Shown here in pieces: positions 3,102 to 49,371 of a stretch of 64,000 nucleotides of DNA. Numbering within the stretch: the first letter of the stretch is position 1; every line of letters starts with the position of its first letter. The notes beneath the pieces were generated by a model, which had not been told where the DNA came from, did no database searches, and saw only the letters and a program-made list of their open reading frames with translations. Source of the DNA: a virus (Duplodnaviria; Caudoviricetes); the IMG/VR virus record IMGVR_UViG_3300037501_000111, positions 256,001 through 320,000 of that record, one strand, 5' to 3'. The translations under genes and the position numbers were made by a program.

Positions 3102-3719
3102 GTGAATAAGTTTGATACTATCGCTGGTTTTACAAAATGTCGTGAGACATGTGTATTTTGTAATACCACATTGCGCATTATATTAACTAATTATGTTGGA
3201 GTTAGTGGACAAGGCATTCCTATTATTAATGCTCCTCTTAAAAATGATAGGTTTGAATTCAAAATCAAACATACAACTCCATCATTTGAGGTTAAGTCAG
3301 ACGTATTCATCTCCACTACAAATAACGCTTTAATATTTGAGAATTTCACCAACGGTGAAATGCCGGCCATTGATGATAATTTAGCCAAACAAGTATTTGA
3401 AGATTATGGGCCACATTTTGAATTGTACTGCCCCAGTAAAAAATGTGGATTAGGGTATTACATAGCTAGCTGGCCAATCAAATTAAAGAAAGTTCATCCT
3501 GTCGTAGGAATGTGGTACATTGAGCCATTTGCCGTGTTTACTGAAAATGTTAAAGTTGGCAATTATGTAGTTGCTAACAATTGGGAATCTAAACTAAGCA
3601 ATATCTATTCTAGAAAGAATATCGACGCTAAGCCTATTGTGGTTCCAATGGTAGATTTTTCTACTATGAATAAAGAGAAACTAATAACTCGAATAAAAAC
3701 TTTGGTGACATTCTCATGA
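3102..3719 (+). CDS. Zn-ribbon / FS-tail family protein
   Basis: CVFC and CPSKKC; ends [25 protein letters not shown]. Confidence 0.8.
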
Positions 3720-4810
3720 ATACTATACACATACAGGTATTGCAATCCTGTCAGGTAAGTCTAAAATCTTTAGAAAAGATGACTTCCTTACCTCAAATGC
3801 GTTTAAGATTAGCTGAGATAGATGAGAAATCTAGTGATCCGTCTTTTTGGAATAATCCAAGATCCGCTGCTATCTTAATGAAAGAACGTAAAAAATTGGA
3901 TGACTTCATTACATTTTTCACACGATCAAAAGACGATTTAGAAATATATAATGAATTCGTCAAGGCTGGAGAGCTAAGTGATGCAGATTTTGCACAGCTT
4001 TTCACTCTAAATTCTAAACTACAGTCTACCGTGTTTGAGCAGATGATGAAAGATCCGGTAGATGATACTCCAGCTATCATTTCTATTAATGCTGGTGCGG
4101 GTGGACTGGAGGCAGCTAATTGGGTTACTATGTTACTTCGTATGTATACTCGATATGCAGATAGCCAAGGCTTCAAGGTCGAGATCCTAGATGAAAAGCC
4201 TTCTGAAGAGCATAGTGCTATTTGTACTGATTCTGTTTCTATTAGAGTAGATGGCCCATATGCATTTGGTTTCTTTAAATCAGAATCTGGAGTTCATCGT
4301 CTCATCCGCAACTCACCATTCAATGCCGCTGATGCTAGACAAACTTCATTTGCTGGTGTTCAGGTCACACCTGATATTGAAGATACTATTGATATTAAAA
4401 TAGAGGAAAAAGATATAGAGATTACTACTATGCGTAATTCTGGTCCAGGTGGACAAAATGTTAACAAAGTAGAATCTGCTGTCCGTCTCAAACATCTTCC
4501 AACTGGTATAGTTATTAATTCTCGTTCAGAGCGTAGTCAATTAGATAATCGTAGATTTGCCATGAAGATGTTGAAAGCAAAACTTTACGAATTAGAAATG
4601 AAAAAGAAGCAAGCCGAACAAGATAAACGTGTGGATGCTACGGCTGATGTATCCTTCGGTAATCAAATCAGAACTTATACTTTAATGCCCTATAAATTAG
4701 TTAAGGATGAACGTACCGGATTTCAAGTTAGAGACGCCGATGCCGTTCTTGATGGTGACATTCAAGGATTTATGATTGCTTATCTTCAGGAATATGATAA
4801 AATCGCATAA
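3716..4810 (+). CDS. prfB: Peptide chain release factor 2
   Basis: SPF stop-recognition tripeptide (RLIRNSPF), GGQ catalytic loop (SGPGGQNV), [22 protein letters not shown]; continuous reading frame. Confidence 0.95.
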
Positions 4811-4815
4811 TAAGT

Positions 4816-5397
4816 ATGAGGAAGTTTACCGTTAAGGACTTCATAGCATACAATAATCCATGTTTTAGCTGTGGTAATCCAATCAATTTTCGTATTGGTT
4901 ACACTCTGATTGGATCGGGTGAGGCAGGGTATTTGCGCCCGGCAATAATGCCTAACCATACTGAAGTTGATTTAATCATTAAATATTCTGATATGGAAGC
5001 GCTAAGACTATGTATTTATCATAAAACAAATAAAATACTAACCAATAGTATTCAAGGCTTGACAAACTACCTTAGCAGCCGTAAGTTGTATTTGACCTCT
5101 ACCTGCGATAAATGCTATACTAAAATAGAAAGCCAATTTCTAGAGTTCAATCTAGAACGCAGATATATCAATGCGGTAGGGCTTAGTAGTGAAAGGTTGA
5201 TGGTTCGTGATAGTGAGAATTTGTATCAGATTACATCTTCTTTTATAGATGAGACCTCATTACTAGTAGTTGATAAGATAGATAAAGTAAAGCCATTATC
5301 TCCATTTCAATTAAAATTACCTCTTTTACCTAAGTATCGATTAAAAGATAAAGACAATTTTATTCGTAAGATTAAAACCTATATGACATTTTCATGA
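4816..5397 (+). CDS. Zn-ribbon / FS-tail family protein
   Basis: CFSC and CDKC; ends LPLLPKYRLKDKDNFIRKIKTYMTFS. Confidence 0.8.
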   Translation: MRKFTVKDFIAYNNPCFSCGNPINFRIGYTLIGSGEAGYLRPAIMPNHTEVDLIIKYSDMEALRLCIYHKTNKILTNSIQGLTNYLSSRKLYLTSTCDKCYTKIESQFLEFNLERRYINAVGLSSERLMVRDSENLYQITSSFIDETSLLVVDKIDKVKPLSPFQLKLPLLPKYRLKDKDNFIRKIKTYMTFS

Positions 5398-13483: not shown

Positions 13484-13783
13484 GGCACAACAGATGCCTT
13501 ATTAGCCCATGAATATTAGTAGTCTCAAATTATATAGTTTATAATGCGATAAGATGCTTTAAGTATTGGGTGAATTATATTAATTTGAATATGGGGTGCC
13601 TATATCCTGTATTGGGGCTAATGGGACGAGAATAGTTATGCAGATCATATCGTGGTCACTATAAATACACCGTCTGAGTGAAGTTTAGACCTTAAGATAA
13701 CGTATAGCCCCCCTTGGGGAGGCGACCTACCACCTCATGCGCACTCCGCCCACACTTTTCCAGCCAGCCTGAAATGAGGGTTT

Positions 13784-13894
13784 TGGCCTGGTTCTTGCAA
13801 TTCAGTTTTGGCATTCTGTTTGCATTTTGCTAATAGCTATACCAACTATATGTAGTATTATTGAATACTAATCATACATGGCATACGTTTTGCA
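13784..13894 (+). promoter_or_regulatory. Three sigma54-type -24/-12 sites
   Basis: TGGCCTGGTTCTTGCA 13784-13799, TGGCATTCTGTTTGCA 13809-13824 and TGGCATACGTTTTGCA 13879-13894; all have exact GG-N10-GC spacing. Confidence 0.65.
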
Positions 13895-13983
13895 AAAATC
13901 AATGAATATGCCAAGGGCGCAGCGCACTTACCCTGTTGGCTCCCATTCACGGGCTGCACTTACCCAGGATTGGAGGTTGAACG

Positions 13984-14448
13984 ATGAACAAGAGCCAGGT
14001 TTCCGCCATCCTTGCCCGAGATCCGTACGCCGTGACCAAGGCGATCGTGCTTCTCTTCTCCTACCAGACGGTGGGGGAGCGTCGCACATCGACCACGGTG
14101 GAGGACAACGGGGTCGGTTTCAACGCAGTGCACGCCAAGAACGCCTCTTACTGGGCGAGGTGGGTGCTCGGGGTCGGACTGAACACCCCAGCCCACATCG
14201 TGGACGACAAGGTGCGACACTACCTGACCGGCGACAACTGCCGACAGTACCGCACTCTCACCGGCTCCTACCTGGTGGAGGCACGTCGGGTGGCCGCCCA
14301 CTACTGGCGACAACTCGCCGCAGCGGCCAAGGCTAAGGCTAAGGCAAAGCTCGTGCCAATCGTCGAGCACCGCGGCACCGACATGTCGCACATGCTGCGA
14401 CAGTTCGACCGCTTCCAGGTCCACCCCGGCATCACGCAGCATGTCTGA
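13984..14448 (+). CDS. Phage hypothetical protein (first gene of the GC-rich block)
   Basis: GGAGG RBS, GC-rich codon usage, downstream of a motif copy. Confidence 0.75.
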   Translation: MNKSQVSAILARDPYAVTKAIVLLFSYQTVGERRTSTTVEDNGVGFNAVHAKNASYWARWVLGVGLNTPAHIVDDKVRHYLTGDNCRQYRTLTGSYLVEARRVAAHYWRQLAAAAKAKAKAKLVPIVEHRGTDMSHMLRQFDRFQVHPGITQHV

Positions 14449-14460
14449 CATGTAGGTTGA

Positions 14461-14495
14461 AAGGGGAGGGTGGCGCTAGCCACCCTCCCCTTCTT
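14461..14495 (+). terminator. Intrinsic terminator-like hairpin
   Basis: AAGGGGAGGGTGGC-GCTA-GCCACCCTCCCCTT (14 bp) followed by CTT. Confidence 0.7.
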
Positions 14496-14505
14496 ACGTT
14501 GTGGG

Positions 14506-14540
14506 CGGCATAGCCATTGCAGGGTGCAAAGCATGTGCCA
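14506..14540. promoter_or_regulatory. Face-to-face pair of sigma54-type sites
   Basis: + strand CGGCATAGCCATTGCA 14506-14521, then GGG, then - strand TGGCACATGCTTTGCA 14525-14540. Confidence 0.6.
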
Positions 14541-14633
14541 GGCAAGTTTGCCCCACGTAAACCGCCGCCTCCCATTCACTGCCAGTCCAGACCGAGAAGC
14601 GTCCACACCAACCCGAACGCAGGAGCCACCGCC

Positions 14634-15260
14634 ATGGGTCTCGCTGACATCATCGCGCTCGTTTCGTCTGCTCACGTCGACCCCACCATCGCGCCCGAGA
14701 TTGACGACTCGCCCGAGATCGTCGAGACGGTTATCGGCCGCAATCTCCCCAAGCCTGTGCGAGGCAAGAAGCAGGTCGCTTCCATTCACGACGGCCCCAA
14801 GGTGTTCGGCGTGACCCTGCCCGAACGCAACACGCTGGACGCCAAGAGCTTCCTTCTCGCTGTTCGCAACGCGGGCAAGCGGCCCAACGCCAAGGGAGCC
14901 ATGGTCTTCGACAAGGCCCACGAGCGCAACGATCTCATCTGTGCTATCCACGCTTACGTTGGGTACGATACCCGACGTGATTTCGGCCCGCAGGACACCG
15001 AGGCGCGGGCCAAGGCCCAGCGCGAGCTGAGGGACGGTGTCACCCCTGGTCCCACCAGGGAGGAGAAGCGGAGTGCAGAGCGTAGCCTGTCGGGCTACGT
15101 GGCTGGCATGCCGCGCCCGGCTCAGAAGCTCCTCGCCAATCTCAGGGCTAGGGAGCAAGCGGCAGCCGAGGCGATGATCGACGCCAAGACCCCGGAGGAG
15201 AAGGTAACATACAAGCACCTCCTCGACACCATTCGTAAGGCCATCGACGAGTTGGTCTGA
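14634..15260 (+). CDS. Hypothetical protein
   Basis: AGGAG RBS before the ATG at 14634; GC-rich codon bias. Confidence 0.75.
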   Translation: MGLADIIALVSSAHVDPTIAPEIDDSPEIVETVIGRNLPKPVRGKKQVASIHDGPKVFGVTLPERNTLDAKSFLLAVRNAGKRPNAKGAMVFDKAHERNDLICAIHAYVGYDTRRDFGPQDTEARAKAQRELRDGVTPGPTREEKRSAERSLSGYVAGMPRPAQKLLANLRAREQAAAEAMIDAKTPEEKVTYKHLLDTIRKAIDELV

Positions 15261-15280
15261 CCCACATAAGGCTCACATCC

Positions 15281-15330
15281 CGAAGGGCTCACACCTGGCG
15301 GGGTGTGGGCCTTTCGCTTTTTCTTTTTTC
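15281..15330 (+). terminator. Intrinsic terminator
   Basis: 15-bp stem CGAAGGGCTCACACC/GGTGTGGGCCTTTCG followed by a long T tract. Confidence 0.85.
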
Positions 15331-15350
15331 GCGATGTAGGGAAAAGTGGT

Positions 15351-15366
15351 TGGCATAGCCATTGCA
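15351..15366 (+). promoter_or_regulatory. Sigma54-type site
   Basis: TGGCATAGCCATTGCA followed by GGGTGCA; 22-nt identity with the copy at 14507. Confidence 0.6.
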
Positions 15367-15582
15367 GGGTGCATATGCGCGAGAAGAGGCGCCTTCCATT
15401 CACTGGCAATCGGAGTCGAAAGGTGCAGCAACGGACGGCAGCAAGGCAAGCAAGCCAGCGCACTAGGCGCAAGTCGTTCGCTACTGTATGCGACCACACA
15501 CGGCAGCAAGGTTCATACCAGGGGCTTGACCCCAAGTCGTGAATAGGCGCCTCCCATTCACCGCCAGACAGCGAGGTTGAGC

Positions 15583-15753
15583 ATGACAGCGAACGAAGCG
15601 TACGAACGAGGGAAAGCGGACGCCAGGCGTGAGAAGGCGCCCCTCTTCCGCTGCACTCGCCATGGGTACGAGCCCACGGTCGATGATGACATGGCGGATA
15701 ACTGGACGCAAGAAGATCGTTTCCACTACGTCCAGGGTTACGACCACGGCTAG
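15583..15753 (+). CDS. Small hypothetical protein (56 aa)
   Basis: GAGG RBS, follows the motif at 15551; MTANEAYERGKADARRE. Confidence 0.6.
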   Translation: MTANEAYERGKADARREKAPLFRCTRHGYEPTVDDDMADNWTQEDRFHYVQGYDHG

Positions 15754-15934
15754 CGCCGGTCCTACGAACAACGGTTGAGCCAAGCGGCTCCCATTCACGA
15801 CGAAATCGAGTGCGGAAGTTGCAATCGCCCCTCACGGCAGCAGGCACCAACGGTGCGGCACCATCGAGTGCAAGTCGAGAGGGGCGGTTGCCTCCCATTC
15901 ACAACGAACGTCACCACAACGAAGGAGCATCATC

Positions 15935-16120
15935 ATGAAAAACGTCGATCTCTCGGTCTCTGGCGACACCCTCGTCATCAAGGTCAGCCTCAAGGCGCCC
16001 CGCACGGCCAGCGCCTCTGGCAAGTCGGATGTCATCGCCTCCACGGAGGGGAACGTCAGCATCCCCGGCTTCCCCAACATCAAGCTCGGTCTCAATTGCT
16101 ACACCCCTAAGGGCAAGTAA
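15935..16120 (+). CDS. Small beta-rich protein (ASTEGN family), copy 1
   Basis: AAGGAG RBS; SGKSDVIASTEGNVSIP, KLGLNCY; paralog at 20837. Confidence 0.8.
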   Translation: MKNVDLSVSGDTLVIKVSLKAPRTASASGKSDVIASTEGNVSIPGFPNIKLGLNCYTPKGK

Positions 16121-16357
16121 CGCCCTTCGGCCAGCTAGTCGCCCCGTGCAATCCCGAGTCTTCTGTCAGGCTCAAAAGGGACACGGGGCGACTAGCCTAG
16201 TTTCTGTTTCTCCAGCGTCACCAAAAGCGCACGGGGCTACGTGCGGCCTTCCAAGGTTTGAGTGACATAAGGGTTCGACTCCCTATGAATCTGTAGCATC
16301 CCGGCCCGTAGCCTTCCATTCACGGAGGCACGGGCTTGAGGTGTTGGAGGTACAACG

Positions 16358-16618
16358 ATGCGCAAGCCTTTCGACATGGCCAACAAGTACGAGTACGGCT
16401 CATACCATGACGACGAACCCACCATCAAAACGCAGGTGCCTGCGTTTCTCCCCAAGGTCATCGTGGATGATGATGCGGAAGACGACGAGCCCACGCTGCC
16501 TAGCTTGCGCAATCCCTTCCACGAAGAGAAGCGCTATCCTGGGATCGGTCTGCTGATCGTCCTGTTCAGCGGAGCACTCTTTTGGGGTGCGGTCTTGTGG
16601 TTCTTCGTCTGGCACTGA
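16358..16618 (+). CDS. Small protein with C-terminal transmembrane helix
   Basis: GGAGG RBS; acidic N-terminal part, hydrophobic C-terminus. Confidence 0.7.
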   Translation: MRKPFDMANKYEYGSYHDDEPTIKTQVPAFLPKVIVDDDAEDDEPTLPSLRNPFHEEKRYPGIGLLIVLFSGALFWGAVLWFFVWH

Positions 16619-16807
16619 TGTGCCAAGGCGAGGTGTAGGTAAGAAGGCCACTGGTCAAGAGACCCTTGGCAAGATGCTCGTGTCCCGACATGGTGACATG
16701 TGCAAGCGCAGCGCTAATGCGCTGGAAAAGGTGAGTGCCGTCAAGAGCGCGACTCACAGGCTCCCATTCACTGATCATCGATAGCGAAAGACAACGGAGG
16801 TACGAAC

Positions 16808-17107
16808 ATGGCATATGGCATCTGGGACGTGAGCGGGAAGGTTCTGATTCCCGGCGCTCGTAAAAGCGCGAGCTTCGGTCCTGTCCGCATCGTGGACAAG
16901 GATCGGGCGACTGCCAGCCGGCATCTGGCCGCGCTGCTGAACGAGAAGTTCCGGCGGGACCTGAAAGGGGACCACCGCTTCTCGGCGGGGTACGCCCTGA
17001 TGAACCTGAAGTGGGAAGAGGTGTGCAAGAAGTCCGCCGCTCCCACGACCGCAACGGCGGTCCAGGTGTCGGAGCAGGTGCGTGCTCAGGAAGCAGCGGC
17101 CGAGTGA
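16808..17107 (+). CDS. Hypothetical protein
   Basis: GGAGG RBS, follows the motif at 16761. Confidence 0.7.
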   Translation: MAYGIWDVSGKVLIPGARKSASFGPVRIVDKDRATASRHLAALLNEKFRRDLKGDHRFSAGYALMNLKWEEVCKKSAAPTTATAVQVSEQVRAQEAAAE

Positions 17108-17150
17108 AGCTCCCTGTTTTCCCATTCATCGCAACACGGAGGACAATGGC

Positions 17151-17369
17151 ATGAGCAACGTAACCGCCGAGCAAGTGACCGCTGGGATTCGCATGGCCGC
17201 AGCAGTGGGGGAAGCCATCCGTGATCTGGGTTCCGTTCCCAGCGGGCATCTGTATGCCAGACTGATGGGACATATGAGCCCGGAGACCTACAACAAGGTC
17301 ATCTCCCTACTGGTCAAGGTGGGTGCGGTCAAAGAGGAGAACCATCTCCTGACATGGGTGGGGAAGTAA
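17151..17369 (+). CDS. Small hypothetical, possibly winged-helix-like protein
   Basis: GGAGGA RBS 7 nt upstream; three helices plus a terminal beta-hairpin pattern (VKEENHLLTWVG). Confidence 0.65.
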   Translation: MSNVTAEQVTAGIRMAAAVGEAIRDLGSVPSGHLYARLMGHMSPETYNKVISLLVKVGAVKEENHLLTWVGK

Positions 17370-17464
17370 CAGTCCCATGTTTCGCACGTACGATGATTGG
17401 AAACTTGCTACTCCCCCAGAATACGAGTTTCTTGAGCCGGAGCCTGGGGAGGAAGAAGAAACAC

Positions 17465-17698
17465 ATGAAAACACTGATCCTACTGATGGGTATCCTAACC
17501 CTGATGTGGATGTGCAACTACACGACCCAAAGCCATCCTGACGACTGCTCGGGGACTCAGTGTACCTGGGATTACGGTACCAGGGAGGGGAGTGTGTGCT
17601 GCCCCGAGTCGGCTCCATACTGCGGTAGGGAAGGTACCTCTTGCCCAAAAGGACAATGTTGTGCTAGTCCTGGGGTCAATCTGGACCCGTTGAGGTGA
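17465..17698 (+). CDS. Small secreted Cys-rich protein
   Basis: Hydrophobic leader MKTLILLMGILTLMW; several Cys including two CC pairs. Confidence 0.55.
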   Translation: MKTLILLMGILTLMWMCNYTTQSHPDDCSGTQCTWDYGTREGSVCCPESAPYCGREGTSCPKGQCCASPGVNLDPLR

Positions 17699-17703
17699 AA
17701 CAA

Positions 17704-17729
17704 GGTGGCCCTTCGGGGCCATCTCTGTT
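17704..17729 (+). terminator. UUCG-capped hairpin, probable terminator
   Basis: GGTGGCCC-TTCG-GGGCCATC directly after a stop codon. Confidence 0.55.
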
Positions 17730-18031
17730 GAGCAAGGTGGCATCGCTATTACAGGGTACAATGGGCGTGCCAGCGAGTTCAAATGGTCGAAAACTCACCG
17801 TCGCCACGTGCCCAAGTCGGAACCTCGGAAACGGGGAAGGCGTCAACGCGAGCACAGTGCTCGCTCCCATTCACGGGGCCGAGGAATTCAACCCCGATCT
17901 AATTGGTCTCCTATCTGGTGGAGCCCATGAATCCGGCTCATTTTTTACCCCGACCGCACTTACCGCAGCGCCAAAACACCGCAGCAGTAGGGCGTTTGCA
18001 TACATGTAGCATATATGTAGGGAAAGGTAGT

Positions 18032-18066
18032 TGGCATGGTTATGGCAGGGTGCAAACGGCGAGCCA
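18032..18066. promoter_or_regulatory. Second face-to-face sigma54-type pair
   Basis: + strand TGGCATGGTTATGGCA, then GGG, then - strand TGGCTCGCCGTTTGCA. Confidence 0.5.
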
Positions 18067-18278
18067 ACGATACGAACGCAAAAACCGGGCCAAGCGGCCT
18101 CCCATTCACGGCGCATCGCCAGCGAAGGTCGCCGCACCGCAAACGACGCAACGCAAGGTGCAGACATACAGACACGGACCATGTGAGTGGGTATGAGCAA
18201 GAGGGACGGGCTCCCATTCACGGCAAACCGGGCGCCGAAAGCGCCGCAACCCACACACTGACAAGAGGGAAGAAAACA

Positions 18279-20239: not shown

Positions 20240-20701
20240 ATGACGAAGCGAGCATACGACAAGGTTCCTGTCTATAGCCTGCAAGTTGTCAAGGAGCGTA
20301 CTCTCAAGTACCCTGCTGACAAGGTGCCTCACCACATGGCAGCCGCAGCGGTCTTTCAAGCCTACCTGGAAGACAAGGCTTGTGAGCACTTGGCAATCCT
20401 TCTGTTGGATGGGCAATCCAAGATGATTGGAATTGCCACCATCACCATCGGTGGGCTGGATCGCCTGTCTTGCTCAGTCCGAAGTGTCTTTGAGCACGTC
20501 ATTGGTGGGCGGGCTCATGGCTTCATCCTGGGACATAACCATCCCAGCGGTAATGTCCAACCTTCTCCTGAGGATCTGGTTTTCACTCAGAGGGTGATGG
20601 AGGCTAGCGAAATCATTGGGGTTCCCATGCTGGACCACATCATCATCTCGTCTAGCACCAATCGGGACTCTTTGTCTTTCTTGGACAAGGGTTTGTTGTA
20701 A
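20240..20701 (+). CDS. RadC-like JAB/MPN domain protein
   Basis: E-x-x-ILLLD, HNHPSG-x4-S-x2-D, LDHIII. Confidence 0.9.
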   Translation: MTKRAYDKVPVYSLQVVKERTLKYPADKVPHHMAAAAVFQAYLEDKACEHLAILLLDGQSKMIGIATITIGGLDRLSCSVRSVFEHVIGGRAHGFILGHNHPSGNVQPSPEDLVFTQRVMEASEIIGVPMLDHIIISSSTNRDSLSFLDKGLL

Positions 20702-20836: not shown

Positions 20837-21013
20837 ATGGAAAACGTCAAGATGTTGGTCAACGGAACGAAGCTCACCATCGAGGTTGATCTCGCCCATC
20901 GTGGTGCGAAGTCTTCCACGGGCAAGACGATTCGAGTGGCGAGCACGGAGGGCAACGTGGAGTGTCCCGAGCACCCGGCCATCAAGGTCGGTCTGAATGT
21001 GTTTACGAAGTAA
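20837..21013 (+). CDS. Small beta-rich protein (ASTEGN family), copy 2
   Basis: AGGAG RBS; MENVKMLVNGTKLTIEVDL, TGKTIRVASTEGNV, KVGLNVFTK. Confidence 0.8.
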   Translation: MENVKMLVNGTKLTIEVDLAHRGAKSSTGKTIRVASTEGNVECPEHPAIKVGLNVFTK

Positions 21014-22733: not shown

Positions 22734-22960
22734 GCGTGGAACGGAATCGGGTTTGGTGTAAGAGGCTGGCCAGTTGACAACGGATCAACGCAGCTAATCC
22801 CAAGTCAAAAACACCCTTTGTTTCCTGATTGGAATAGCGCCACTCTCCCTGACAAAGACAGAGGAACGGTTAGCCAAATGGTCATGGTGAGTACGTTCGG
22901 GAGCATCTAGTGGAACTGACCAACCACTAAGACTATGGGTTCGACTCCCATTCACGGACA
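22734..22960 (+). ncRNA. Candidate structured RNA ending in a tRNA T-arm-like hairpin
   Basis: No ORF; nested stems, a possible pseudoknot (TGGTCA/TGACCA with TAGTGG/CCACTA) and ATGGG-TTCGACT-CCCAT. Confidence 0.4.
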
Positions 22961-46188: not shown

Positions 46189-46992
46189 ATGAGACGAAAA
46201 GACTCTAGCAAAAAAAATACAAGCAAATCGCTGCTTCGCTATCCAGGTGGTAAAACCAGAGCTATCAGTACTATCACCCACTATTTTCCAAAAGATATTA
46301 CAGAGTTGTGCTCTCCATTTTTTGGAGGAGGATCAATAGAATTATGGTTAGCTGCTAAAGGTGTTAAAGTATATGCTTATGATATTTTTCGGCCATTAGT
46401 TGATTTTTGGCAGACAGTAATTCTTCATCCAGAAGAGCTATCAAAAGAAGTACAGAAATACTATCCACTTGCCAAGGAAGCATTTTATAAACTTCAAGAA
46501 GAACAAAATAAATTCTCTACTAAATTAGAAAGGGCTGCGGCGTTCTATGTTCTAAATAGAAGCTCTTTTTCAGGATCAACCTTATCTGGTGGTATGTCCC
46601 CCAATCATCCTCGTTTCAATCAGACGTCTATTGATCGTGTTAGAGATTTTCATAATCCTAACTTTAGTGTAAATCGGTTGGATTTTAATGAATCCATTGT
46701 AAAACATGATAAGGTTTTCAAATATCTTGATCCTCCTTACATAATTGAGGGGGCACTTTATGGTAAAGATGGAAGCACCCATAAAGATTTTGACCATCAA
46801 GGACTATTTAATCTGTTAAACAAAACAGACAATTGGATCATGTCTTATAATAATTGTGAAGAGATTAGATCTCTTTATAAAGATTATCAAATGATTGAGC
46901 CTGTTTGGGCGTATGGTATGTCTAAAAATAAAAGATCTAATGAACTATTAATCTTCAGTAAAGATATCAAATCTAAACAAAATGGGATCTAA
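46189..46992 (+). CDS. DNA adenine methyltransferase, Dam/D12 class
   Basis: LRYPGGK, SPFFGGGS, YDI, YLDPPY, WIMSYN. Confidence 0.92.
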   Translation: MRRKDSSKKNTSKSLLRYPGGKTRAISTITHYFPKDITELCSPFFGGGSIELWLAAKGVKVYAYDIFRPLVDFWQTVILHPEELSKEVQKYYPLAKEAFYKLQEEQNKFSTKLERAAAFYVLNRSSFSGSTLSGGMSPNHPRFNQTSIDRVRDFHNPNFSVNRLDFNESIVKHDKVFKYLDPPYIIEGALYGKDGSTHKDFDHQGLFNLLNKTDNWIMSYNNCEEIRSLYKDYQMIEPVWAYGMSKNKRSNELLIFSKDIKSKQNGI

Positions 46993-47902
46993 TAAGCAAA
47001 CAAAAAATGGTAAAGCTTTTGAGTTTGCATTTGCTAATTCTCTTTACAATAATTGTTCTGAATTTTCAGAAACTGATTTAGTGTCAGATTATACATATAA
47101 TGTGGCACTAAATCATTACAATTCTACAGATATTGATGAACAGAAAAAGTTTAATGAAGCCGCTGACATTGCAGTAGAACATATTATTTCACTTGAGCCT
47201 CAATTAATTACTCCGAAGTCAAATTTAGATCTATTGAAAATAGAACTACTATCAGATACAGCAGGCAAATTAGGAGACGTTAGGGACGTAAAAGCATTTA
47301 GAAAAATGCAAGCATTTGAAATTGGGTTTTCTAATAAAAATAATCACAAAGCGCTCAAAAGTAATAGAATTTCTGATGTTAGTGATTTTGGGAAAGAATG
47401 GGTAAATATATCTTGTTCTTCTCAATTTATATCAGATATAAAACCTATTTTTTCCCGTCTAAGATCTCTTCATCAAACTCATAGTAAATGGTCATCTCTT
47501 ACCGACAAAGAAACTGGTATTTATAAACCAATTTTAGATGCTCTTAAGAAAGAGATTGAATCTCTCAACCAATCGCAAAATATAGCTGTTCCACTTTTCA
47601 AATACTTTTTGGGAAGAAAAGACTTTTACAAAGTTATTAAACAAGATAAATCATCTGAAGTCGAGATTGAGGGGTTTAATGTGAATGGTAATTTATCAAT
47701 TACTAAATTAGCTTTACCCTCTAAAATTGAAAGGTTGCAATTTAAAACAAACTCTAATAATAGGTTGCTTTTAATCTTTGACCAAGATTGGATTCTAGAA
47801 TTTAGAATACACTCCGCATCTTCAATAGTTGAGCCCTCTCTTAAATTTGATGTCCAATTGATTGGTAATCCACCAATTTATAGAAAGGTTCTATCTATCT
47901 AA
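46982..47902 (+). CDS. HaeIII-family-like restriction endonuclease
   Basis: NGKAFE, GDVRD, S-x-K-N-N-H, GRKDFYKVI, FRIHSASS-x-VEPSLKFDVQL. Confidence 0.75.
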   Translation: MGSNKQTKNGKAFEFAFANSLYNNCSEFSETDLVSDYTYNVALNHYNSTDIDEQKKFNEAADIAVEHIISLEPQLITPKSNLDLLKIELLSDTAGKLGDVRDVKAFRKMQAFEIGFSNKNNHKALKSNRISDVSDFGKEWVNISCSSQFISDIKPIFSRLRSLHQTHSKWSSLTDKETGIYKPILDALKKEIESLNQSQNIAVPLFKYFLGRKDFYKVIKQDKSSEVEIEGFNVNGNLSITKLALPSKIERLQFKTNSNNRLLLIFDQDWILEFRIHSASSIVEPSLKFDVQLIGNPPIYRKVLSI

Positions 47903-48195: not shown

Positions 48196-49371
48196 ATGTC
48201 AGATTGGTCCCCTCAAATTGTTCGCATTGAAAAGATAGAGAAACATCCATATGCAGACGCATTGGATATCGCTACCGTACTTGGTGACTATCCAGTCATC
48301 GTCAAGCGAGATGAATATAAAAAAGGAGACCTGGCGGGTTACATTCCTATTGACTCTATTGTTCCTGATACTGAAGAGTTTCACTTTCTCTGCCCCAAAA
48401 ATATAGAGAAGTATGAAGAAGTAGAGGGAAATGAGATTGTAACCAAGACTCGTGTGCTTGGTCCCAAATTTCCGGTTGGTTTGGTTCCAGAAAAGAATCG
48501 TATCATTAAGGCAAAAAAGATTCGCGGAATCTATAGCCAGGGAATGCTGGTCTCTACTGCTGGGTTAATTAAACCAGTTCTGCCATATGATGTGGAGCCT
48601 ATAGCAATCGTAGAGGATGGCACCAAATACAACTTGTTCACCTGGAATCCTGGCGATTCAATTGTTGAGGCTTTGTCACTCAAGAAGTGGAAAGAGGAAG
48701 AAGAAGATAATCTTCCCGGTCTCAAAAAGACGCGAACCAACGCAGAGAAAGCCCCACAAGGGTGGTCTATTCCTCACTATGATATCGATTCGGTACGTAA
48801 GGTAGTTAACCTTCTTCTTCCTGGTGAAGAGATTGTTCTAACCGAAAAGATTCATGGCTCTAATGCTGGCTTCTCACATGATGGTATCAGACTGTGGGTG
48901 AAGTCTCGCAACTTTTACAAGAAGATGGACGAAGAGGATATGTGGTGGGATATTGCAATCCGCTATGAGCTTGACAAGAAGCTCTCTCAATATCCGGGCC
49001 TTGTCTTCTTCGGTGAAGTATATGGTCATGTCAAGAAATTCTGTTACGATACCATTATCGAAGGTGGGCGCTTGCTTACACGCGTTCGCTTCTTCGATGT
49101 GTGGGACACCAAGAAAATGCGATACGTTGATTATGATGAACGAGTACACATTTGTACGGAGCTGGGATTGGATATGGTCCCTGAATTGTACCGAGGTCCA
49201 TGGCTTGGTAAGGAACAAATGTATCCTTATGCCGAGGGCTTGACAACGTTGGGAGGCAAGCATATCCGTGAAGGATGGGTTCTTAACACCGTCAAGGAGC
49301 GCTTCGAGCCCCATCTCAATTCTAGAATGCAATTTAAATTGGTAGGAGAGGGGTATAACCTTCAGAAGTAA
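48196..49371 (+). CDS. RNA ligase (DRB0094/Rnl2-related) with N-terminal OB-like domain
   Basis: IEKHPYADALDIA, TEKIHGSN (motif I), FGE, FDV, REGWV, QFK. Confidence 0.9.
   Translation: MSDWSPQIVRIEKIEKHPYADALDIATVLGDYPVIVKRDEYKKGDLAGYIPIDSIVPDTEEFHFLCPKNIEKYEEVEGNEIVTKTRVLGPKFPVGLVPEKNRIIKAKKIRGIYSQGMLVSTAGLIKPVLPYDVEPIAIVEDGTKYNLFTWNPGDSIVEALSLKKWKEEEEDNLPGLKKTRTNAEKAPQGWSIPHYDIDSVRKVVNLLLPGEEIVLTEKIHGSNAGFSHDGIRLWVKSRNFYKKMDEEDMWWDIAIRYELDKKLSQYPGLVFFGEVYGHVKKFCYDTIIEGGRLLTRVRFFDVWDTKKMRYVDYDERVHICTELGLDMVPELYRGPWLGKEQMYPYAEGLTTLGGKHIREGWVLNTVKERFEPHLNSRMQFKLVGEGYNLQK

Follow-up and report, generated by a model that had tools for sequence, protein, structure and literature searches.

A 64,000-nucleotide (nt) stretch from an uncultured freshwater megaphage (the window; IMG/VR record IMGVR_UViG_3300037501_000111, positions 256,001 to 320,000) carries, in its early region, a cluster of sites resembling the -24/-12 recognition element of the bacterial sigma factor sigma-54. 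The conserved unit of the cluster is a 35-base-pair (bp) mirror pair, TGGCA-N6-TTGCA-N3-TGCAA-N6-TGCCA, in which two such elements face each other. Given what the sites are, their enrichment and conservation, and where they lie and in which genomes they occur, we consider it likely that they are sigma-54 recognition elements under selection. Binding of sigma-54 and promoter activity are what these observations suggest; there is about an even chance that the gene-facing halves are immediate-early promoters dependent on a host activator or an unrecognised one. That reading is proposed because the gene-facing halves are better kept than their mirror images. Sigma-54 is the only bacterial sigma factor unable to open DNA without an ATPase, and to our knowledge every well-studied phage begins infection either from sigma-70-type host promoters or with a polymerase of its own.

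Between 13700 and 18100, 13 sites match TGGCAY-N5-TTGCW with at most one mismatch, where 500 dinucleotide shuffles of the same region gave 0.32 ± 0.54 and never more than 3. Exact consensus matches number 4 against an expectation of 0.01. The remaining 59.6 kilobases (kb) of the window hold two matches at up to one mismatch, and the density is 2.95 per kb in the region against 0.034 per kb elsewhere, an 88-fold difference. The shuffle counts rule out a chance origin of the cluster. An earlier note on this DNA had drawn attention to the cluster through eight sites with GG-N10-GC spacing, and had called for a scan against shuffled controls. Against the dinucleotide shuffles of the region the full consensus stands far above chance, but the spacing taken as a criterion by itself gives no signal, with 68 occurrences against 65.6 expected. 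The signal resides in the full consensus and not in the bare spacing rule. All eight sites are present at the coordinates first assigned to them, and there are five more, one on the plus strand at 17738 and four on the minus strand at 17757, 13898, 14343 and 15505. The sites have GG at -24 and GC at -12, with the exact 10-nt gap, within the frame of TGGCAC-N5-TTGCW. The plus sites are all intergenic, all follow terminator hairpins and all are co-oriented with the genes downstream.

At 14506-14540, 17738-17772 and 18032-18066, a plus site opposes a minus site across three bases, and the same facing arrangement is found, weakly, at 13809 and 13879. The earlier note had taken the single site as the unit, and this is the part of its description that has to be replaced by the mirror pair; its view of the sites as sigma-54-type is supported, and they are non-random, sit at gene heads, are conserved and are early-only. 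The sites, and the gene used as an anchor for finding relatives, are as follows.

13784 to 13799, plus strand: site 1, a lone element, TGGCCT-N5-TTGCA, 25 bp ahead of site 2, a spacing kept in the relatives L007 and L010
13809 to 13843, plus strand: site 2, whose plus half, TGGCAT-N5-TTGCA, is perfect; its mirror half is degenerate and displaced by 1 nt
13879 to 13913, plus strand: site 3, a perfect plus half (same sequence as site 2) with a weak mirror half that lacks the GC; predicted start near 13905
13984 to 14448, plus strand: gene 1, 154 amino acids (aa), PHROG 21015, of unknown function, opening the rightward GC-rich early block
14343 to 14358, minus strand: antisense site within the low-complexity 3' part of gene 1
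14506 to 14540, both strands: mirror pair A at the junction of genes 1 and 2, plus half CGGCAT-N5-TTGCA and minus half (14525-14540) TGGCAC-N5-TTGCA; predicted starts near 14532 (plus) and 14514 (minus)
15334 to 15373, plus strand: cassette B, consisting of the conserved flank ATGTAGGGAAAAGTGGT and a perfect plus half at 15351-15366 (same sequence as site 2); predicted start near 15377
17738 to 17772, both strands: mirror pair C, absent from the earlier list, with -12 elements TTACA and TTGTA; predicted starts near 17764 (plus) and 17746 (minus)
18015 to 18066, both strands: cassette D, consisting of the conserved flank ATGTAGGGAAAGGTAGT and a pair at 18032-18066, plus half TGGCAT-N5-TGGCA and minus half (18051-18066) TGGCTC-N5-TTGCA; predicted starts near 18058 (plus) and 18040 (minus)

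Cassettes B and D, two internal units, share the 17-nt upstream flank ATGTAGGGAAArGTrGT. The mirror half of cassette B is reduced to the inner palindrome, and the exact 23-nt extended motif of that cassette is absent from IMG/VR. The element ATGTAG(G) recurs beside sites in the window (13849, 14450, 15335 and 18004-18020) and in L010 and L007; between sites 2 and 3 it does not vary in five lineages, and ahead of pair D it is present twice. A stable DNA or RNA hairpin formed by the pair itself was rejected, since the N6 spacers are neither complementary nor conserved.

The pairs keep their places over evolutionary distance. Homologs of gene 1 were found at 36-91 % identity. The comparison covers the window and the syntenic loci of three further lineages, including a 490-kb contig; the gene 1 proteins of the compared lineages are roughly 73-78 % identical to that of the window. 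Contigs L001-L006, which match the window at 100 % identity, carry no comparative signal. A further relative, L019, whose gene 1 is about 58 % identical, came from the viral-contig scan and also bears sites ahead of gene 1. In the four compared lineages, pairs occupy the same junctions: gene A is preceded by two or three, others are at A|B and B|C, and J is preceded by a double unit. The genes between the pairs differ among lineages, families N, O, P, U, Q, V and R having been gained or lost, and such gains and losses are not restricted to the pair positions. The antisense site at 14343 recurs as a perfect match in the same place in L007 (10442) and L008 (5488), despite differing protein sequence there.

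The four pentamers hardly vary over the 25 sites compared, while the N5/N6 spacers hold 0.2-0.7 bits per position. Three lineages have GGG as the central triplet, and another has TAT or ATA. The two halves are not kept equally. The gene-facing half contains 19.9 bits of information against 16.3 for the mirror half, and among the 25 sites both GG and GC are unbroken in 24 gene-facing halves and in 20 mirror halves. Site by site, the facing half comes out better 15 times and worse 3 times; this is a count from mismatch lists over partly orthologous sites, not a formal test.

Restriction to the early region was read from two IMG/VR records. In a 210-kb relative (G001), all seven pairs fall in a 6.6-kb span at the early region. 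In a complete 481-kb relative (G006), the seven pairs lie in a 25-kb stretch, and five of these fall in 4.5 kb. The reversed-pattern control gave 0 in both.

The sigma-54 consensus mrNrYTGGCACG-4bp-TTGCWNNw was derived from 186 promoters (Barrios et al. 1999, as quoted in PMC2725144). The phage half-sites agree with it at all 11 core positions and in the exact spacing. A test of the flanks used 66 half-sites from 30 viral contigs, at positions that the search pattern had left free. Position 7 is G in 38, A in 25, C in 2 and T in 1; at position 8, 52 have a purine; and at position 11, just before TTGC, 49 have C or T, each as in the extended consensus. The two boxes of a half-site differ in their flanks in the way that -24 and -12 elements do, which speaks against a simple repeat-binding protein that reads four equivalent boxes.

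The pair is a viral element. It occurs in its exact form in 30 IMG/VR contigs and nowhere in 596 gigabases (Gb) of bacterial and archaeal genomes, where about 0.14 occurrences would be expected by chance. Bacteria show no enrichment of the pair, and viruses show a very large one. A host operator was rejected as its origin on the same absence from bacterial genomes. The 30 contigs, with GC contents of 33-59 %, are mostly unrelated to the window phage, having neither a gene 1 homolog nor the TCCCATTCA motif, and no gene family common to all pair-bearing contigs was found. Since the same pair is present in unrelated phages with no gene family common to all of them, the simplest reader is a conserved host protein, and that common reader would most simply be host sigma-54.

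The search of viral contigs with a degenerate mirror-pair pattern also covers five complete phages of 40-45 kb. In these, every perfect site is located in one non-coding divergent junction, as 2-5 tandem pairs forming dense arrays within 100-600 bp. Lone sites at the array edges point to the adjacent operon at promoter distance; the site at 5017 (minus strand) of L047 lies about 45 nt ahead of a ribosome-binding site and ATG. The control regions of these small phages hold several further repeat families. Between their divergent sites are 17-bp palindromes, GGAAC-N5/6-GTTCC, and CCACA...TGTGG repeats (L048 5300-5445, L049 9738-9862 and L047 5200-5355), at enhancer-like distances of 50-200 bp.

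One protein family may be a partner of the sites. It is a family of 58-64-aa all-beta proteins, encoded in the window at 15935-16120 (61 aa) and 20837-21013, and in small phages at L046 7822-8004, L047 3325-3513 (minus strand) and L048 2974-3168 (minus strand). It is common to the megaphage lineage and three of the five small pair-bearing phages, where it lies within about 2 kb of the arrays, and it is missing from the pair-bearing records G002 and G011. No Pfam, PHROG, PDB sequence or fold match was found for it (the model has a predicted local distance difference test score, pLDDT, of 89.8), and in the Atlas it falls in viral hypothetical clusters only.

The setting of the sites in the window is that of a sharp boundary. 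At about 13.5 kb, leftward AT-rich genes (35 % GC) give way to a rightward GC-rich block (61 %) of small orphan genes. The following features adjoin the sites.

13706 to 13765, no strand assigned: a block of about 55 bp, directly upstream of site 1 and almost invariant in an alignment of five lineages
14461 to 14492, plus strand: a hairpin with a perfect 14-bp stem, 3' of gene 1 and just ahead of pair A, probably a terminator
15281 to 15316, plus strand: a terminator-like hairpin with a T run, 3' of gene 2
17706 to 17721: a hairpin directly preceding pair C
13940 to 18221, plus strand: a second motif class, GCYTCCCATTCACGG, with copies at 13940, 14569, 14779, 15393, 15551, 15788, 15892, 16313, 16761, 17119, 17864, 18099 and 18211

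After each of the three hairpins a site follows within 14-35 nt. Units A, B and C come directly after theirs, and pair D is about 85 nt downstream of a hairpin. Site 3 lies ahead of the first CTCCCATTCAC copy (13940) and gene 1. Each sigma-54-type site has a CTCCCATTCAC copy downstream, the four internal units being 42-126 nt ahead of one. For the sites at 13879, 14506, 15351 and 18032, which the earlier note had put 27-52 nt upstream of the motif, the gaps from the site end are 45, 47, 26 and 51 nt, in agreement with it.

The second motif class has a different range. There are 31 copies of GCYTCCCATTCACGG in the whole window, all on the plus strand, from 13940 to 57511 (the copy positions reaching to 57501), and relatives L031 and L019 conserve it in 13-18 copies. 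The CTCCCATTCAC motif has no conserved upstream part and is usually found 18-55 nt before a start codon. It looks like a promoter-like class of its own, confined to this phage lineage; we take GCYTCCCATTCACGG to be a compact promoter or an RNA processing site. The GCYTCCCATTCACGG copy at 22935 extends a GGTTCGA resembling a tRNA T-arm. Some copies begin short non-coding units that run from CTCCCATTCAC to the next copy or to a T-run hairpin (15393-15551, 15788-15892, 17864-17946 with the hairpin at 17917-17946, and 18099-18211), and several of these bear ACGGCAGCARG repeats. These units may be small RNAs of the early region.

The candidate readers encoded by the phages themselves are few. The earlier note had proposed looking for a bacterial enhancer-binding protein or an RpoN homolog, and neither turned up in the complete 481-kb relative. 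The activator ATPase domain (PF00158) was found neither there nor in 29 of the other pair-bearing records, the one match, in G016, being marginal, and the RpoN DNA-binding domain (PF04552) was absent from the complete relative and from the other pair-bearing records, among them the five complete small phages. The complete relative also has no RNA polymerase beta (PF00562) or beta-prime (PF00623) domain. It gave no match to a T7-type polymerase, a weak result in that the control also matched nowhere. It does have one small sigma-70-family gene, located within an AT-rich module. A scan for sigma-70-type promoters found none on the plus strand in the gap ahead of gene 1 or in the region. With no phage polymerase found and no plus-strand sigma-70-type match ahead of gene 1, the first genes would be expected to be read by the polymerase of the host carrying one of the host's sigma factors. 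A repeated upstream enhancer is not evident at the internal cassettes, and the conserved 55-bp block stands before site 1 only.

In the immediate-early promoter reading, host RNA polymerase with sigma-54 would dock on the sites, and the gene-facing halves would fire from starts about 12 nt past the GC, which are the plus starts listed above. The ATP-dependent opening step would be supplied by a host activator or by an unrecognised phage factor. The mirror half would yield a short leftward transcript or provide a second docking mode. The CTCCCATTCAC motif, which continues for 44 kb, probably serves later transcription.

Several observations weigh against this reading. The carriers of the pair that are complete (the 481-kb relative and the five small phages) encode no detectable PF00158 activator or PF04552 domain, and the internal cassettes are without a repeated enhancer. 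The precise mirror geometry with its 2-3 bp centre is superfluous for a promoter and unexplained; at most one polymerase could occupy a pair at any time, and the two halves have predicted starts that cross, overlapping by about 19 nt. Neither the mirror halves nor the antisense site at 14343 suits a simple promoter. The -12 element is weakened at two sites (TTACA at 17738, and the mirror half of 13879). Finally, the promoter-like motif that follows every site might suffice alone. A bolder idea is that the mirror pair is a phage-specific device with its own mechanism, reached independently by unrelated phages of many hosts, which either lets sigma-54 fire without a classical AAA+ activator, by means of a small early protein or the symmetric DNA itself, or else forms a trap that disables host sigma-54. 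We regard this as doubtful.

The earlier note had offered two explanations, early promoters or a decoy, and these remain the leading ones. A link to Myxococcus, which it had brought up, has no basis, and a Myxococcus host was rejected for want of evidence.

As a decoy, the pairs would hold host sigma-54 or its holoenzyme in a closed, silent complex, and the early genes would be read from CTCCCATTCAC. Replicating sites would soak up the factor, turning off sigma-54-dependent stress or repair responses of the host or freeing core polymerase. Several observations favour this: no encoded activator was found, overlapping mirror halves would double the docking modes with no transcription required, a further promoter-like motif is at hand after each site, the small phages concentrate 2-5 pairs in their short arrays, and the pair is virus-only (30 viral contigs and 0 bacterial). 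Trapping, however, requires neither orientation nor position, and the sites have both. The gene-facing half is systematically better kept, in four lineages the pairs keep set positions behind terminators at the heads of operons, and lone sites in the small phages face the adjacent operon at promoter distance. There are also only about seven pairs per 480-kb genome. On balance we think a trap unlikely.

The symmetry of the pair could instead be that of an operator, with a dimer or tetramer of some protein other than sigma-54 reading four T(G/T)GCA boxes and switching the CTCCCATTCAC promoters of the early cassettes. The likeness to sigma-54 sites would then be coincidental, or would have evolved for competition with sigma-54. 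Two-fold symmetry about a nearly fixed centre is typical of operators, arrays in divergent control regions are found in phage genetic switches, and the 61-aa all-beta early family shared by the megaphage lineage and three small phages could supply the partner. That family is, however, missing from G002 and G011, and no protein family is present in all pair-bearing phages. Each half also agrees with the sigma-54 consensus at 11 core positions, in exact spacing and in box-specific flanks; conserved lone half-sites exist (13784 and its counterparts); and the spacing to the downstream motif ranges between 42 and 126 nt. An operator of this kind is in our judgement quite improbable.

We give very little credence to the pairs as recombination or replication elements, that is, as cassette ends driving module shuffling or as origin iterons with protein binding secondary, for although gene content between pairs differs among lineages (the seven families named above), the layout of terminator and site resembles a known shuffling cassette of T4-type phages (PMC2839356) and the small-phage control regions hold several other repeat families, genes are gained and lost away from the pairs as well, the same motif is found in unrelated phages with different replication genes, and the sigma-54 consensus fit is left unexplained.

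The 55-bp block upstream of site 1 coincides with the switch in composition and strand, and it could be a control element, an enhancer or a genome-end element. Contigs of the same or related phages often start no more than 1.5 kb away: L004 (at 13721, in the block itself), L006 (at 13058) and L005 (at 12246), and also L011 and L012. These starts may reflect a genome end or an assembly break. The phage itself is present as identical copies (100 %) in several lake metagenomes, and the flagged region has no megablast match among deposited phages. Comparison of ten early proteins with Pfam and PHROGs gave nothing useful, and an Rfam scan found three tRNAs only, all far from the flagged region. Elsewhere in the window are genes for a full release-factor homolog with PCRF and RF-1 domains (3716-4810), a Dam-type methyltransferase adjoining a HaeIII-type restriction endonuclease (46189-47902), an RNA ligase (48196-49371) and a RadC-like protein (20240-20701).

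The enhancer-dependent -24/-12 promoters of bacteria, of which glnAp2 and pspA are examples, are the closest counterpart of the phage sites. Both have GG and GC at the exact spacing, the extended consensus, an intergenic location and co-orientation with the genes downstream, and the palindromes between divergent sites in the small phages lie at enhancer-like distances. In contrast to the bacterial promoters, the phage sites, which are putative promoters, belong to carriers with no detected RpoN or activator, show no evident internal enhancer, and are overlapping mirror pairs with a 2-3 bp centre, a form unseen in the 596 Gb of bacterial genomes.

Other resemblances are partial. In the PeSL cassettes of T4-type phages, a terminator hairpin is joined to an early promoter that is strong and of sigma-70 type (Arbiol et al. 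2010, PMC2839356). These cassettes are likewise repeated units of hairpin terminator and early promoter among small variable orphan early genes in a plastic region, but the element here is sigma-54-type and mirrored, and genes have come and gone at other places than the units as well. Another arrangement is that of phage T7, where A1, A2 and A3 are tandem sigma-70 early promoters for host polymerase at the leading genome end. Here, too, three closely spaced host-type elements precede the first early gene at a sharp boundary; unlike the phage sites, the T7 promoters need no activator, and the boundary in the window may or may not be a physical genome end. Warman, Grainger and colleagues have reportedly described bidirectional sigma-70 promoters with symmetric, shared -10 elements, in which symmetry also makes one short element readable on both strands. 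Those promoters share the -10 and their transcripts diverge, whereas a phage pair has its -12 elements side by side, its -24 elements on the outside and predicted starts that cross, with a 5' overlap of about 19 nt. The lambda operators OR and OL are arrays bound by the phage repressor and, like the small-phage arrays, consist of several dyad-symmetric sites in a divergent control region. They differ in that the phage half-site here is 16 bp and amounts to a full sigma-54 promoter, that the same site occurs in unrelated phages, and that no cognate repressor gene was found here.

A search of the available literature found no phage with sigma-54 early promoters or with mirror-paired sigma-54 sites. 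The effect of rpoN on Salmonella phages is indirect, by way of glutamine and RpoS (PMC8744999). What is new here is the presence of the sites in a megaphage lineage, their positional conservation over four lineages, their restriction to the early region in a complete genome and the asymmetry of their halves.

If a giant phage, and apparently many unrelated phages, do put near-consensus sigma-54 sites ahead of their early genes and encode no activator, one of three things would follow: a novel way of taking over the host, with the phage still transcribed while sigma-70 is shut off; a means of sensing the state of the host through a host activator; or a new anti-host decoy. The mirror pair is a simple signature, found in viruses and not in bacteria, which makes the idea directly testable, and it could help to locate early regions in the genomes of uncultured phages.

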